Part shown: one piece after another, positions 17,877-31,430 of the stretch
Numbering within the stretch: position 1 is the stretch's first letter
Layout: the number at the start of each line of letters is the position of its first letter
Source of the DNA: Thermoplasmatales archaeon SW_10_69_26
Lineage (GTDB): Archaea > Thermoplasmatota > SW-10-69-26
Length of the DNA stretch: 64,000 bases
Assembly (NCBI GenBank): GCA_003009755.1
Contig: PXUB01000042.1
Coordinates: 730 to 64,729, forward strand
Reading direction: 5' to 3'
Translations under genes and position numbers: made by a program
The notes under the pieces: generated by a model
Told to the model about the DNA's origin: nothing
Seen by the model: only the letters and a program-made list of their open reading frames with translations
Databases searched by the model: none

Positions 17877-18273
17877 ATGGCGGCCCGCGGGCTCGCGGTG
17901 AGAGCGCGACGACTGCATGGTCCTCGAACGGATACGGCTCGTCAGAGCCGCACGAATCACGAGGAGCAAGCCGTTCGCGGGGCTGCATTGGCACATCGGG
18001 GCGCTCGTCTCGTGGTACGACGGTTCCCGCGAGATGGTCGTTGCTCGGCGCCGACCGTCGAGCGAGTCCGGCCCCCTTTTTGGGCCGGACGACTTACGAG
18101 GAGCGGGCCGGCCGGGACGGGGACACTCGTTTCCGCCGTGGGACGGTGGTCTCGTGGTATGACGGCTCCCGTGAGAAGACCGGTGTCGATCGTCCGGTCT
18201 TCGAGCGAGTACGGCTCGTCAGAGCCGTACGAATTACGAGGAGCTAGCTGTTGGCGGGTTGTATTCGCACGGC
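17877..18273 (+). repeat. Three tandem degenerate 5'-tRNA-Val copies with twin-hairpin inserts
   Basis: Units at ~17877, 17998 and 18140; inserts 18029-18093 and 18171-18233 sit inside the anticodon loop. Confidence 0.85.
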
Positions 18274-18345
18274 GGGGCGGTGGTCTAGTGGTATGACGGC
18301 TCCCTTACGAGGAGCAAGCCGCAGGTTCAAATCCTGCCCGCCCCA
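18274..18345 (+). tRNA. tRNA-Val(TAC)
   Basis: GGGGCGG/CCGCCCC-A acceptor, GCTCC-CTTACGA-GGAGC anticodon arm, GGTTCAAATCC T-arm. Confidence 0.95.
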
Positions 18346-18354
18346 TTCGTAGCA

Positions 18355-18471
18355 GGGCAGGATTTGAACTCTGGTTCAATCGCGAAGGGCCGGAGGCTAC
18401 GCGCGGTCCTTCGCGAGAGCCCGAACGCGCGTCGATAGGTGCAACGTTCGGGTGAAATCCTGCCCGCCCCA
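18355..18471 (+). repeat. tRNA-Val 3'-end duplication with twin-hairpin insert
   Basis: GGGCAGGATTTGAAC, GGTTCAA, two hairpins, then AAATCCTGCCCGCCCCA (identical to 18329-18345). Confidence 0.85.
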
Positions 18472-18833
18472 CTCGCCGCTGACTAAGCCGGCCCGTCTCC
18501 GTCCGCCACCGGGTCGCCTGCACGGGGTCTTGTCACCTCGGTGACAACGGAACTACTTTCGTCGTTCGCCATGGCGTTGAGGCAAGCGGTCGCGTCCGTC
18601 CCCCCAACACGTCCAACCCCCGTTCCTGCAACACCCCCGGACCGACTCCTGTGCTGTTCCTACCCCCGGGCGCGACCGCTTGTCCCCACCTTTCCCGTGA
18701 CCCAAGCTCCGACCAGCCGGCGGTGGGCCACCGCCGCTCGGAGGCGGCGGTCATGTGCCTGTCCGCCAAGCGGGAAGCTTAAGGGCGGAGGTCGGCTGTC
18801 CTCAACGCGCGGACCGCTTGCGTCCCGCAGACC

Positions 18834-26878: not shown

Positions 26879-27031
26879 TCAGTGGACGGAGTCGTGATCG
26901 ACGGCGACGCGCTCGTCCTCGTCAGGACTCTCCAGCAGGACCGGCTGCCCCTCCTCGTCGCGGTCCACGACCTCGTACCCGCTGTTCACCATGCGGGACG
27001 CGGTCAGACGACCGACGCTGCGGTCAGCCAT
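26879..27031 (-). CDS. Small hypothetical protein
   Basis: 50 aa acidic ORF with GGAGG upstream. Confidence 0.45.
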   Translation of the reverse strand: MADRSVGRLTASRMVNSGYEVVDRDEEGQPVLLESPDEDERVAVDHDSVH

Positions 27032-27192
27032 GCGACGCCTCCGGTTGCCCGATAACATCTCCCTGTTCATCAGACGATCGGTCGAGGGACTCGTTCACTT
27101 CGCCTAGCGTGTCCAGCGGCGAGTGGAGCCGATGAGGGGGTGTCGCCTCACCCCAGACATCGTTCGCCGTGCGGCTTGACCCCTGCGCAGCC

Positions 27193-27246
27193 CCGAAGGG
27201 AAAAGGTTTTTATAGAACTGCAAGGGCGGCAAAGACTTATATAGAA
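27193..27246 (+). promoter_or_regulatory. Tandem BRE/TATA boxes of the thermosome gene
   Basis: AAAAGGTTTTTATAGAA and AAAGACTTATATAGAA; the second lies ~30 bp before the ATG. Confidence 0.7.
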
Positions 27247-27270
27247 GCGGTGTTTTGGTTAGCGTAGACT

Positions 27271-28968
27271 ATGAGAGGAAAAGAGGGTCAACCGTTCATC
27301 GTGCTCGCCGAGGGCACGGATCGGAGCCAGGGCCAGAACGCCCAAAGCAACAACATCCAGGCTGCCCGAGCGATCAGCGACGCCGTTCGCTCCACGCTCG
27401 GTCCCCGCGGCATGGACAAGATGCTCGTCGACTCGATGGGCGACGTCGTCATCACGAACGATGGCGTCACCATCCTCAACGAGATCGACATCCAGCACCC
27501 CGCCGCGAAGATGATGGTCGAGGTCGCCAAGAGCCTCGAGCAAGAGGTCGGCGACGGCACGACCAGCAGCGTCGTGCTCGCCGGTGAGCTCCTCAACAAG
27601 TCCGAGGACCTGCTCAACGACGTCCACGCTACTCTGATCACCCGCGGTTTCAACCTGGCCGCCGAGCGCGCCCAGGAGATCCTCGACAACCTCACCACCG
27701 ACGTCGACGTCGATGACGACGAGCTTCTCGCGAAGGTCGCCCGCACGTCGATGGCCAGCAAGCTCTCCGGTGGCCACCTCGACACCTTGGCGCCCGTCAC
27801 CGTGGAAGCCATCCGCGCCGTCTCCCGTCAGCGCGACGGCAACGTCGTCGTCGAGAAGGACGACATCGGCTTCTCCAAGAAGACCGGCGGCAGCGTCGAG
27901 GACACCGAGGTCATCGACGGCCTCCTCCTCGACAAGGACCGCGTCCACTCCGGCATGCCCGAAACCGTCGAGGACGCCAACATCCTGCTGCTCAACAAGG
28001 CGATCGAGTTCGAGAAGACCGAGGTCGACTCCGAGATCCAGATCTCCGACCCCGACCAGCTCCAGGCGTTCCTCGACCAAGAGCAGGACGTCCTCGAAGA
28101 GATGGTCGACCAGATCGAGGCCTCCGGTGCCAACGTCGTCTTCTGCCAGAAGGGCATCGACGACGTTGCCCAGCACCTCCTGGCCCGCCGCGGCATCTTC
28201 GCCGTCCGCCGCGCCAAGAAGTCCGACATGCAGCGCCTCGAGAAGGCAACCGGCGCCCGCATCGTCAACAGCCTCGACGACCTCACCGAGGACGACCTCG
28301 GCACGGCCGGCCGCGTCGAAGAGCGCACCATCGGCGACGACACCTCCACGTTCGTCACCGGTGCCCCCGACGCCGAGGCCGTCAGCGTGCTGATCCGCGG
28401 CGGCACCGAGCACGTCGTCGACGAGGTCGAGCGCACGCTCGAAGACTCCATCGGTAGCGTGGCGGCCGCCCTCGAAGAGGGCAAGGTCGTCCCCGGCGCC
28501 GGTGCGACCGAGACCGAGGTCGCGCTGCGCCTCCGCGAGTACGCCAACACCGTTGGCGGTCGCGAGCAGCTCGCCATCGAGACGTTCGCCGACGCCATCG
28601 AGATCGTGCCCCGCACGCTCGCCGAGAACGCTGGCATGGACGCCATCCAGGTGCTCGTCGACCTCCGCAGCGAGCACGAGAACGGCAACAAGTCCACCGG
28701 CGTGCTCGTCGACGAGGGCGAGATCCGCGACGCCACCGCCGAGGGCGCCGTCGAGCCCCTCCGCGTCAAGACGCAGACGATCAAGTCGGCCGCCGAGGCC
28801 GCCACGATGGTCCTGCGCATCGACGACGTCATCGCCTCCAAGGGCGCCTTCGACGAGGACGCCGGCGGTCCGCCCGCTGGCGGCCCCGGCGGTCCCGGCG
28901 GCGGCCCGCCCGGCGGCGGCATGCCCGGCGGCATGCCCGGCGGGATGGGCGGACTTCCTGGGATGTGA
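27271..28968 (+). CDS. ths: Thermosome (group II chaperonin) subunit
   Basis: [30 protein letters not shown] and a GGM-rich tail. Confidence 0.97.
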
Positions 28969-29183
28969 ATCGGGTCAAGAGACGTCCGCCCAGAGACCGG
29001 ATCTTGGATCCGGTCGAATCTGGAGACCCGGTGCCGTTGATCGGGTCTCCAGCCGGGCGGACTCCCCGGCATGTGAACACCGGGTCAAGCCCAACCGGAG
29101 TCCGCCCAGAGGACGAGCCCGCCAGGGCTCGTCCGAATCTGGAGGTCGACATCACCGCGCGACCTCCAGCCGCGGACTTCCTG
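28947..29183 (+). repeat. Tandem duplications of the thermosome 3' end with twin-hairpin inserts
   Basis: GGGCGGACT.CC.GG.ATGTGAA at 28947 and 29055, GCGGACTTCCTG at 29172. Each unit is GTCCGCCC-AGA-hairpin-GAAT-hairpin-CC-target. Confidence 0.85.
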
Positions 29184-29308
29184 ACGTCACCGTAGGGCCG
29201 GCCCTCGGGCCGACCCCTTCCCTCTTCCTCCCTTTCTCTTCTCACGACCAGTCGCGGTGCTGTTCCGCCCGATGGCCTCTTTCGACGACCGCCGACGCCT
29301 TGCTCGGA

Positions 29309-30373
29309 CTACCCGTCGAGGAGCCCCAGCACGCGGTCGTCCAGCGCCGAGGTCGGCACGTCGACGTCGGCGGGATCGACCCACTGCCAGGCTTCGCCGG
29401 TGACGACCTCCTCGCGCGGTTCGGCGGCCAGCGCCCGGACCTGCCACCGCTTGTGCGAGAACGTGTGCTCGACCCGCCCGATCGGCTCGGTCTCGTCCAC
29501 CTCCACCGCGAAGGGCAGATCCGGGGCGAGCGTGGCCGGCGGTGTGTCGCCGTGCTCGATCACCGGGGGGCCCCACAACCCGCCGAGCAGGCCATCGGGG
29601 TCGCGGCGGTGCACCAGGACCTGCCCGTTCCGCGCGAGGATCAGCGCCGTGACGGCGTGCGTGGACAGGTCCGGTGTCGATCGGTCGATGCCCAGCTCGT
29701 CGACCCGGGCCCCCTGGTAGGCCGTGCACACGGGGCTCAGCGGGCAAACCTCGCAGGCGGGGTCGACGGGCGTGCAGACGAGCGAGCCCAGCTCCATCAG
29801 CGCCTCGTTCAGGCGACCGGCTCGGCCCCGCTCGAACACCGGTCCCAGCCGCGTGCGGACCTCGCGTTTCAGCTTGTCGCTGGTAACCTCGCCCTCGATG
29901 CCCTCGACTCGGGCGCCCACGCGCGCCATGTTGCCGTCGACGGCGGGGGCCGGTTTGTCGAAGGCCATCGAGGCGATCGCGGCGGCCGTGTAGGGGCCCA
30001 CGCCGGGCAGCTGTTCCAGCTGGGATAGCCGGCGAGGCACCTCGCCGCCGTGCTCGTCCCTGATCTTGCGCGCCGTGCGCAACAGCCAGCGCGCCCGGTT
30101 GTAGTAGCCCAGGCCCTGCCAGGCGTCCAGCACCTCCTCCTCGCTGGCCTCGGCCAGGTCCTCGACGCCAGGCCAGCGCTCCAGCCAGCGCTCGTAGTAG
30201 GGAAGCGCGGTGCTCATCCGCGTCTGCTGCAGCATGATCTCGCGGACGAGCAACGCGTAGGGATCCTCGTCCTCGCTGCCCCGCCACGGCAGCTCGCGGC
30301 GATGCTCGGCGAACCAACCCAGCAGCCGCTCGTGCAGGCGGTCCAGCGCCTCGGGGTCCGAGGGTAGGCCCAC
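29309..30373 (-). CDS. mutY: A/G-specific adenine glycosylase
   Basis: RELPWR, EIMLQQT, WQGLGYY, LPGVGPYTA, VDGN, FeS cysteines and a NUDIX-like C-terminus. Confidence 0.93.
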   Translation of the reverse strand: MGLPSDPEALDRLHERLLGWFAEHRRELPWRGSEDEDPYALLVREIMLQQTRMSTALPYYERWLERWPGVEDLAEASEEEVLDAWQGLGYYNRARWLLRTARKIRDEHGGEVPRRLSQLEQLPGVGPYTAAAIASMAFDKPAPAVDGNMARVGARVEGIEGEVTSDKLKREVRTRLGPVFERGRAGRLNEALMELGSLVCTPVDPACEVCPLSPVCTAYQGARVDELGIDRSTPDLSTHAVTALILARNGQVLVHRRDPDGLLGGLWGPPVIEHGDTPPATLAPDLPFAVEVDETEPIGRVEHTFSHKRWQVRALAAEPREEVVTGEAWQWVDPADVDVPTSALDDRVLGLLDG

Positions 30374-30428
30374 GCGTCCCGGCAACCTCGCGGCCCACCT
30401 AAGCCTTCCGTCGACGCCGGCAGGGGGG

Positions 30429-30896
30429 TCAGCGGGTCACGAGCTCGATGCCTACCCGAGCGAGGGTCGGGCCCGGGTGCACGCCGGCCCCGTCCAGCAC
30501 GTCCAAGGCGTCGCGGCTGAGGTAGCACTCCTCGGCCTCGGCCGCCTGGGCTGTCTCGGCCAGCGTCGTTTCGAGCGGGGGCTCGAGGACGTGGGTCTGG
30601 ATGCGCTCGGCGGGGTCGCCGGCGGGCTCGAAGACGCCGGCCACCTCCTCCGCGTTGCGAGCCGCGATCTCGACGGCGTGCTCGCGGGCTCGCTGGGCCA
30701 GGACCTCGGCGACCGCGGTCAACGCCTCTCCGAGGTCGTCCGCGAGGGCGGAGCCCAGCAGGCGCGGCTCGGTCGGGACGAGGATCGCCAGGGGATCGAA
30801 GTGATCGCGCAGCGCCTCCTCGAGCACGCCGGGACAGCCGCGGGTCCCAAGATAGCAGACGGACCGCATCGTCGCGACCAACCGGCCGCGATGCAT
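30429..30896 (-). CDS. Hypothetical protein
   Basis: Acidic ORF with host-like codon usage; start uncertain. Confidence 0.55.
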   Translation of the reverse strand: MHRGRLVATMRSVCYLGTRGCPGVLEEALRDHFDPLAILVPTEPRLLGSALADDLGEALTAVAEVLAQRAREHAVEIAARNAEEVAGVFEPAGDPAERIQTHVLEPPLETTLAETAQAAEAEECYLSRDALDVLDGAGVHPGPTLARVGIELVTR

Positions 30897-30974
30897 CAAG
30901 GTGCCGGGTGCCCGGCTGGGGCGCCCTCTCGCAGGCAGGGACATTCATATATGGAAGGGGGCTTGCCGCCGTCG

Positions 30975-31430
30975 ATGGCCCTTCGCGTCCGGGACGTGAT
31001 GACGTCCGATCCGAGCACGGTCACGCCCGACACGCTGTTGACCGCCGTGGCCGACGAGATCATCGAGGAACGCTACAGCGGCGTCCCCGTCGTCGACGAG
31101 GACGACGAGCTCGTCGGCATCGTCGAGGTCGGCGACCTGTTGCCCCACCCCGAACAGGTGCCGTTCAGCCAGGTCGACGTGCTCGAGTTCCAGGGCGAAT
31201 GGGTCGACGAGGAGCACCTCGAGAACTACTACGAGCTGCTGCAGGAGCTCCGCGTCGAGGCGGTCATGCGGACCGATCCGGTGACCGCCGAGCGAGGAGC
31301 CCCGCTAGGCAAGGTGATCCGCCGGCTGCTGGAGGAGGACGCCCGACGGATCGTCGTCCTCGACGAGGGTGAGGTCATCGGTGTCGTGACCCGGACCGAT
31401 CTCCTCAAGTCCTTCGTCGGGTGGCCCTGA
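30975..31430 (+). CDS. CBS-domain pair protein
   Basis: VRDVMT...GVPVVD...LVGIV and VMRTDP...GVVTRTDLL. Confidence 0.9.
   Translation: MALRVRDVMTSDPSTVTPDTLLTAVADEIIEERYSGVPVVDEDDELVGIVEVGDLLPHPEQVPFSQVDVLEFQGEWVDEEHLENYYELLQELRVEAVMRTDPVTAERGAPLGKVIRRLLEEDARRIVVLDEGEVIGVVTRTDLLKSFVGWP

Follow-up and report, generated by a model that had tools for sequence, protein, structure and literature searches.

The end of the thermosome gene of Thermoplasmatales archaeon SW_10_69_26 has been copied again downstream of the gene, together with two short hairpin-bearing units, and the same arrangement recurs in this genome, both behind other conserved protein genes and at genes for tRNAs. Here we describe these units, designated a and b, which lie in a stretch of 64,000 nucleotides (nt) that we call the window, and we propose that they represent a miniature, non-coding, hairpin-forming mobile element which enters gene ends and either brings or makes a replacement end, a reading that we judge to be, on balance, the probable one. 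What can be observed directly is the anatomy of the units, their recurrence at many targets, the silent character of the differences between the re-copied gene ends, the presence or absence of one whole unit in public contigs, and the use of a single scaffold at two different genes. The window belongs to contig C42 of a 2.8-Mb metagenome-assembled genome (G000; 69% G+C, 95% complete), and the public sequencing runs that contain sequences matching the locus are halite metagenomes.

The thermosome (group II chaperonin) gene occupies positions 27271..28968 of the + strand, the strand of all the features described here for this locus. Its open reading frame (ORF) is intact, matches the Pfam family Cpn60_TCP1 (E 2e-180), ends in GGLPGM* and has the 3' sequence GGGCGGACTTCCTGGGATGTGA. 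A repeat search resolved successive versions of this end. The first, which is in frame (28947..28968), consists of a segment GGGCGGAC, hereafter X, followed by TTCCTGGGATGTGA; it was compared as GGGCGGACTTCCTGGGATGTGAA (28947-28969), with its stop codon at 28966-28968. The second (29055..29076) reads GGGCGGAC TCCCCGGCATGTGA, was compared as GGGCGGACTCCCCGGCATGTGAA (29055-29077), is also written GGGCGGACTCCCCGGCATGTGA, and lies 108 nt downstream of the first; it too encodes GGLPGM*. These two copies are identical at 20 of 23 bases (87%), and each of the three differences falls at a third codon position. A third, shortened remnant, GCGGACTTCCTG (29172..29183), matches copy 1 at 12 of 12 bases and is of its CTT CCT type. 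The preliminary description of this DNA, made from the letters alone, had reported the three tail copies, the twofold GGLPGM* and the synonymous differences, and its positions and identities proved correct. Farther to the right stands a terminator-like G+C hairpin with a CT-rich tract (29195..29245), which its sequence and its likeness to the relatives G001, G004 and G010 suggest to be the native 3' untranslated region (UTR) of the thermosome gene.

Units a and b follow one skeleton, GTCCGCCC-AGAG-hairpin 1-CGAAUC-hairpin 2 (with the base CUGGAG/CUCCAG)-CC, and a repeat comparison revealed that they have GTCCGCCC-AGAG, CGAATCTGGAG and CTCCAGCC in common. The twin-hairpin plan AGA-hairpin-GAAT-hairpin-CC that had been described earlier is present as written; what had been missed is the start of each unit, where GTCCGCCC(A) gives, in reverse complement, the (T)GGGCGGAC that stands at the end of the gene. 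Since (T)GGGCGGAC comprises the initial bases of the re-copied thermosome segment, each unit starts with an inverted target. The inverted copy of unit a (GAcGTCCGCCCA, 28981..28992) is the reverse complement of the gene-end sequence TGGGCGGACtTC over 12 nt, with 92% complementarity, and that of unit b (GGAGTCCGCCCA, 29097..29108) is the reverse complement of TGGGCGGACTCC over 11 nt, with 100% complementarity to copy 2. The core of unit a (28993..29054, from an inverted-repeat search) runs GA, hairpin 1 (28995-29003 / 29007-29015), GAAT, hairpin 2 (29020-29030 / 29042-29052), CC; that of unit b (29109..29171, from the same search and the predicted fold) runs GAG, hairpin 1 (29111-29120 / 29125-29134), GAAT, hairpin 2 (29139-29148 / 29160-29169), CC. 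Unit length is about 108-116 nt. When the hairpin stems of the two units were compared by eye, eight base pairs had changed on both sides and none was broken.

The units are also predicted to be strongly structured. A 301-nt stretch folds at -166.2 kcal/mol, the mean of the shuffled sequences being -134.8 kcal/mol (z = -5.0; 0 of 100 shuffles as good), and the predicted folds contain perfect stems that meet in a three-way junction with linkers of 3, 4 and 2 nt. The inverted copy has two possible partners. By pairing upstream with the gene it would form a hairpin that has the final codons and the stop in its loop, and by pairing downstream with the next tail copy it would close the three-way junction; the minimum-energy fold of unit a is this junction, with a closing stem of 28984-28991 with 29055-29062.

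The thermosome is not the only gene with this layout. In a genome scan, ORF ends were searched for recurrence downstream and the genes were identified by Pfam; six protein genes of G000 (thermosome, TFB, GyrB, a rhodanese protein, GMP synthase and CoA ligase) were found to have a tail followed first by an inverted copy of the duplicated segment's left edge, then by one or two G+C hairpins and finally by the tail copy. The lengths of the duplication and the inverted copy are about 50 and 14 nt at TFB, about 102 and 9 nt at GyrB, about 30 and 14 nt at the rhodanese protein, about 30 and 18 nt at GMP synthase, and about 32 and 12 nt at CoA ligase, the inverted copy being directly 3' of the stop codon at the last three. 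Across the units of this genome the duplication varies from 22 to 103 nt, and the targets have no common core sequence. The inverted copies (9-18 nt) were matched by 0, 0, 0, 0, 16 and 41 of 2000 spacer shuffles. The P0/P1 ribosomal stalk genes (C40:1920-2350; scan match at C40:1978) have in common a C-terminal tail of 53 nt whose differences are mostly silent. Their likeness is due to paralogy, and the pair was excluded before the six-gene counts, from which the other candidates of the scan, several of them tandem repeat arrays or pairs of spurious ORFs, were also left out.

A search for the scaffold at other conserved genes, proposed in the preliminary description, yielded AGAG-hairpin-CGAATCTGGAG...CTCCAG behind the TFB gene, whose 50-nt end is re-copied there. 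The TFB unit thus uses the thermosome scaffold, with GTAGCGGTTCCGAA and AACCGCTAC replacing GTCCGCCC and GGGCGGAC, so that among the units with this scaffold both the inverted and the direct target segments change with the gene. The pattern CGAATCTGGAG...CTCCAG occurs at three places in G000 (thermosome a, thermosome b and TFB) and, in an exact pattern search, in none of 20 other genomes of the class.

The idea that an architecture of the tRNA type had been extended to an mRNA target was likewise borne out, the same layout being present at tRNA genes. Behind tRNA-Val (18274-18345) the sequence GGGCAGGATTTGAAC at 18355-18369 is the inverse of the T arm, and it is followed by two hairpins and then by a copy of the last 18 bases of the tRNA (18454-18471); upstream of this gene (window 17930-18480) there are at least two blocks composed of a copy of the 5' half, two hairpins and a degenerate 3' half. 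The tRNA-Ser locus (C1:123150-124000) has three upstream copies of the first ~24 bases of the gene, each with hairpin units, and a second copy downstream that is interrupted in the anticodon loop and the T loop by two hairpin-only inserts.

Some smaller features of the units can be mentioned here. In the two thermosome units, as in those of rhodanese, GMP synthase and CoA ligase, the trinucleotide NCC stands between the last hairpin and the tail copy (window 29053-29054 and 29170-29171; equivalent spots in the units at C17, C40 and C14). It recalls a tRNA-like 3' end, a resemblance noticed post hoc that could be due to chance in a genome of 69% G+C. Many hairpin-1 stems have the form CGGATC-NNN-GATCCG, i.e., paired GATC sites (28995-29015; C17:35213-35237; C6:543). 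GA...GA flanks hairpin 1 at 34 places, in a scan that itself required a GA...GA flank; these flanks may resemble the tandem sheared G.A pairs that adjoin a 3-nt bulge in kink-turns, the motif bound by L7Ae.

The differences between the tail copies offer a clue to their origin. At the six protein genes, 17 of the 19 sense-codon differences are at third positions, an excess that is significant against an expectation of 1/3 (p = 6e-7) and also against the 1/2 expected under duplication and free decay of one copy (p = 3.6e-4). The stop codon is kept in five of the six second copies, three of which use a different stop. The third-position excess and the retention of stops make plain duplication followed by decay unlikely; to judge by their sequences, both copies look like working gene ends from different lineages of a functional gene. 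Such a difference of lineage would arise either if the unit brings its own tail or if the spare copy is renewed through recombination with other strains. A separate observation concerns codon use: in-frame tails often stop with TAG and use rarer codons, either AGG/GGA or ones ending in A/T, and spare copies favour common C/G-ending codons and TGA/TAA (window 28955-28963; L014 in G020; L159 in G018; L124, the guaA locus of G000). By a hand count of the differing sites, 11 in-frame codons and 6 spare-copy codons end in A/T.

Contigs of four public runs (Logan) were aligned to the stretch, and two of these runs, X1 and X2, come from separate studies. The X1 contigs match exactly over 28602-29500 in four overlapping pieces, and the X2 contigs cover 29007-29500 with few differences, which at the unit borders are a GGC insert after 29055 and GG after 29171. 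Reproduced in this way, the sequence is no artefact of the assembly. In one X1 contig, of depth 5, position 29056 is joined to 29172, with 7 ambiguous bases (GCGGACT) at the junction; what is absent, 29057-29171 (115 nt), is exactly unit b, including the second tail copy. The tail within this skipped unit reads TCCCCGGCATGTGA and the DNA on its right reads TTCCTGACG..., so the tail is not a copy of the present right flank, which argues that unit b carried it. The X1 contig may record either an insertion or a deletion between short repeats, and in both cases the unit boundaries lie at X. The earlier proposal of an inserted element that supplied a replacement terminus thus survives in part: unit b behaves as a discrete piece that can be inserted or excised, and the gene is intact, its full tail preceding the first unit. 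Membership among the integrative elements is unsupported, and the comparison with what such elements do is an analogy, for there is no integrase at the locus and the insert is only ~85-95 nt of non-coding DNA.

Which of the tails is native was also considered. The family relatives G001, G004 and G010 have a thermosome gene without a unit (+ strand), and in these a G+C hairpin with a CT-rich tract follows 25-45 nt past the stop. In G000 the corresponding hairpin and tract adjoin copy 3, whose spelling is the CTT CCT of the in-frame copy; because of this position beside the presumed native 3' UTR we read the CTT CCT tail as the native one. It was probably pushed to the right and later shortened, and copy 2 (CTC CCC GGC) probably came with unit b. 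The preliminary description had taken copy 2 for the native end, which is probably wrong given the type of the remnant at 29172-29183 beside the 3' UTR. In the metagenome contigs the related thermosome loci are at most 64% identical, and none offers a comparable empty site.

The distribution in the class was surveyed by motif-anchored scans of distinct gene ends, with loci drawn from its genomes; the counts for guaA, TFB and gyrB come from 21-genome searches that include G000, and those for the thermosome relatives exclude the window. A tail copy is present at 6 of 24 distinct guaA ends (G000, G003, G007, G009, G014 and G020), at 4 of 24 TFB ends (G000, G010, G016 and G018), at 1 of 15 gyrB ends (G000), and by script at 2 of the 17 relatives' thermosome ends (G003 and G013), to which G020, found by eye, and the window itself must be added. 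The scanned thermosome end of G002 has neither a unit nor a tail copy. The guaA units of G000 and G003, two genomes of different genera, follow one plan: TAG, an 18-nt inverted copy, GAG, hairpin 1, CGRAAC, hairpin 2, and a tail copy ending in TGA. In both genomes the inverted copy is directly 3' of the stop and matches its own gene perfectly, and between the two genomes 5 of the 18 bases of the matched segment differ.

If the units are mobile, their life cycle could be pictured as follows. The element would inhabit conserved genes and tRNA genes, at their 3' ends, within this halophilic group of the Thermoplasmatota. Each unit would be bounded by X (GGGCGGAC) and would comprise a tail copy with its stop and a few UTR bases, the inverted target copy, and one or two G+C hairpins linked by conserved GA-rich linkers (AGAG ... 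CGAAUC). The inverted copy would serve as an address: while the intermediate is single-stranded and folded, this copy would pair with the strand of the target. The tail copy would travel with the unit, and an enzyme would act in trans. After integration at X the gene would keep a complete in-frame tail, the previous tail being shifted downstream as an untranslated spare. Further insertion at the same X would stack the units, as with a and b, and whole units could be gained or lost; the element might also be re-addressed between genes, as the thermosome and TFB units with their one scaffold suggest. The frequent start of the inverted copy at the stop codon may reflect a pressure for a tight hairpin that is limited by the coding sequence. 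The most ambitious form of this proposal is a programmable miniature homing element of ~110 nt that carries its own target address and a differently spelled spare tail, enters the ends of essential genes and of tRNA genes, stacks, crosses species, can be re-addressed from the thermosome to TFB, and is moved by a host or trans-acting enzyme; we advance it tentatively and consider it rather doubtful in its entirety.

Were the proposal true, these would be the smallest known gene-end-targeting elements, they would require no gene in themselves, and the host gene would be protected by the last codons that they supply. The site would be located through base pairing, a natural case of DNA insertion that is guided to an address and has no specially encoded protein. 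The proposal would account for the many "ghost" gene ends and exploded tRNA genes of uncultured archaea and bacteria, and annotators should then read spare tails and tRNA fragments as marks of insertion and not as independent pseudogenes. A stem that follows the coding sequence across genera also opens the way to a direct test of either a mechanism of mobility or a function as RNA.

Several findings weigh against a mobile element. The inverted copy at the guaA gene of G003 pairs with a segment just upstream of the duplication, and that at the TFB gene of G018 fits the in-frame copy and not the spare one. On account of these two cases the closing stem with the second copy must be called frequent, not universal, and the complementarities indicate that the constant pairing partner of the inverted copy is the in-frame gene end. 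By script, an inverted copy of at least 8 nt was not found at 4 of the 6 guaA ends, at 1 of the 4 TFB ends or at the thermosome of G003. The X1 contig that lacks unit b is equally explicable as a deletion between direct repeats of 7-8 nt, and no contig with a wholly empty site, free of the entire array, was present in the four public runs. Silent-only differences could also result from repeated overwriting of the spare copy by element-free strains. In a blastn comparison, seven unit cores were single-copy; only the hairpin-1 module of ~26 nt recurs (its version GAGAGGACGGATCTCCGATCCGTCCG at roughly a dozen loci of G000), and there is no burst signature.

The search for an enzyme adds to these difficulties, none being tied to the element. 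In the 95%-complete G000 there were no matches to Y1 TnpA (PF01797), to TnpB (PF07282, PF01385) or to reverse transcriptase (PF00078); positive controls for TnpA and TnpB gave matches in 6-8 of 14 genomes, and there were positive controls elsewhere for reverse transcriptase. For this reason PATEs, REPs moved by RAYTs, TnpB guide RNAs and retroelements are unsupported as models. The genome has only three tyrosine-recombinase (Phage_integrase) matches, all on contigs other than C42, and three IS110-type transposase matches, none of either at the locus. The IS110-family (DEDD) genes (C3:88341-88769, C2:62978-63406 and C41:8005-8124) are the sole transposase type found among those searched. The IS110 family is known for programmable guide RNAs.

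Some other candidate identities were considered, and the first two below were rejected. The ends of TnpB omega-RNA/IS1341 elements were entertained when a multi-copy repeat with GAGA-hairpin-GAAT was first so read, and fell with the failure to find TnpB or TnpA in G000. The flanks of hairpin 1 resemble those of a hammerhead ribozyme (...GAG-stem-CGAA...), but by eye, and by the consensus, the CUGA part of the core is missing in the thermosome units. Miniature inverted-repeat transposable elements do not fit, because there are no shared terminal inverted repeats, the inverted segments being target-derived and gene-specific, and because the duplication is of 22-103 nt and not of a fixed short length. 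Nor is this a diversity-generating retroelement, the differences being T/C, G/C and A/G at silent sites, not adenine-specific, and PF00078 having no matches. No bulge-helix-bulge motif of the archaeal intron type (two 3-nt bulges, one on either strand, with a 4-bp helix between them, at the boundaries) was seen by eye in the predicted folds, for which no dedicated search was made. A comparison of window 27000-31000 and nine related loci with Rfam gave no family match, only chance-level matches and one tRNA.

The multi-copy repeat that had been read as TnpB ends is a distinct small element, with ~30-40 copies in G000, and its start coincides exactly with the stop codon of genes that are unrelated to one another (YTAR|ACTGCCGGACGTGTTTTGCTTAAGCTCTCGCGCCGGTCT...GAGCGAGGCAAGGTCGCGGAGCCCGAGGAAGGAAACCCC...). 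One of its parts is a promoter-like box rich in A+T, and in some copies only there is a 52-nt hairpin block that includes GAGA-hairpin-GAAT; examples are C36:11400-11520, C32:131560-131780 (L101) and C39:12700-12950.

The chief rival of the mobile-element proposal is an origin in place, by template switching or snap-back at a hairpin, which would create the long target duplication and the inverted joint without any travelling of the tail, the silent differences arising later by recombination. In favour of such an origin, the inverted copy always fits the gene beside it, even at bases immediately 5' of the duplication, and at the TFB gene of G010 it mirrors most of the tail in a near snap-back directly 3' of the stop. 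Some tail pairs, those of guaA in G020 and G007, are identical, with no differences, and restriction-modification genes have been described with long variable duplications and no gene for mobility (PMC2853133). Yet the tail of unit b differs from its right flank and cannot therefore be a duplicate of the present target, and the third-position bias in 17 of 19 differences is not what such an origin would be expected to leave. A scaffold common to the thermosome and TFB, and another to guaA in two genera, needs a transmissible element, and every such event would take three or more template switches in order. We regard an origin in place as unlikely, while conceding that it has a real claim to attention.

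An improbable alternative is that the units are a host RNA device of the 3' UTR, either a translation-sensing switch, in which the inverted copy pairs with the coding end or, once the ribosome has opened this first stem, with the downstream copy, or a stabiliser or terminator built on kink-turn-like hairpins. The two mutually exclusive pairings, the covarying stems with their conserved linkers, the 18-nt stem that follows the guaA coding sequence in two genera, and the possible likeness of the hairpin-1 flanks to kink-turns are all in its favour. Pairing, however, requires X alone and not a whole tail with its own stop, and tRNA genes have the same arrangement, in which a trailer complementary to the T arm would hamper folding. 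The units are, moreover, patchy in the family, the ends of G001 and G004 (+ strand) and of G002 (scan) having neither unit nor tail copy, and part of the population does without unit b. Among the public runs, the contig of an RNA run stops at 28966, and no RNA contig extends over the units.

We would give as little weight to the possibility that these are scars of larger, integrase-driven elements at gene 3' ends that lost their interior, like cis-mobilisable elements, leaving attL and attR ~100 bases apart. Three points count for it: the duplication of 3' ends that differ at silent sites, which is how attL and attR classically look, the targeting of tRNA genes, and a weak tyrosine-recombinase match (C1:122312-122803) ~1 kb from the unit-rich tRNA-Ser array. 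But independent deletions would yield neither one linker-hairpin scaffold at different genes nor an inverted target copy abutting the stop codon; there is no integrase near the locus, and the targets have no common core. Finally, an assembly that had joined two strain alleles of the gene end in tandem is conceivable, since G000 was assembled from a metagenome whose sample contains varying strains, but it can be practically dismissed, the junctions being reproduced by independent Logan contigs of two studies and the architecture being present at many loci and in other genomes.

If these units are mobile, two aspects of their behavior have precedents, since the replacement of 3' ends by integrating elements and insertion with long target duplications are both already known; in the literature that we searched, we found no small hairpin element described as combining a re-copied gene end with an inverted joint. 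In the IS200/IS605 guides, the integron attC and the attP of CTX-phi, a segment of the element pairs with or mimics the target, and recognition is based on structure and pairing, not on one set sequence. The known guides of the IS200/IS605 type are 4-5 nt long, and none of these elements is known to make a long duplication. These systems serve here as working analogies, no HUH transposase having been found in G000 and no tyrosine recombinase being tied to the units. Phage 21 and e14 enter the 3' end of icd and carry a replacement end, and integrase-less derivatives of this kind include the cis-mobilisable elements. Our units resemble them in aiming at conserved 3' ends, whether of housekeeping genes or of tRNAs, in leaving the gene intact, and in a duplicated end, in the style of attL/attR, that has mostly silent differences, 17 of 19 at third positions. 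They differ in being gene-less, without an integrase, in having an inverted target copy and a conserved scaffold, and in the absence of a common target core.

Insertion with a long and variable target duplication was described by Nobusato et al. 2000 and by Furuta, Abe and Kobayashi 2010 (PMC2853133). In the consulted passages the inserts, like our units, are flanked by direct duplications of tens of bases, some of which overlap gene 3' ends, and have neither a transposase or integrase nor an established mechanism; unlike our units, they are kilobase-sized restriction-modification genes in bacteria, and those passages mention neither a hairpin scaffold nor an inverted joint. Closer in size and habitat are the PATEs and the SMR-A repeats of Haloquadratum walsbyi. 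According to the excerpted text of the report on them, these are non-coding, palindromic mobile repeats of 52-110 bp, some of the repeats in that organism insert into palindromes, the movement of SMR-A is called enigmatic, PATEs and SMRs make no target duplication, and PATEs derive from IS200/IS605 (PMC3119063). Set beside that account, the units of G000 differ from PATEs in that neither Y1 TnpA nor TnpB was found in their genome and in that they are flanked by duplications of 22-103 nt, and they resemble PATEs and SMR-A in being small, non-coding, palindrome-bearing inhabitants of halophilic archaea.

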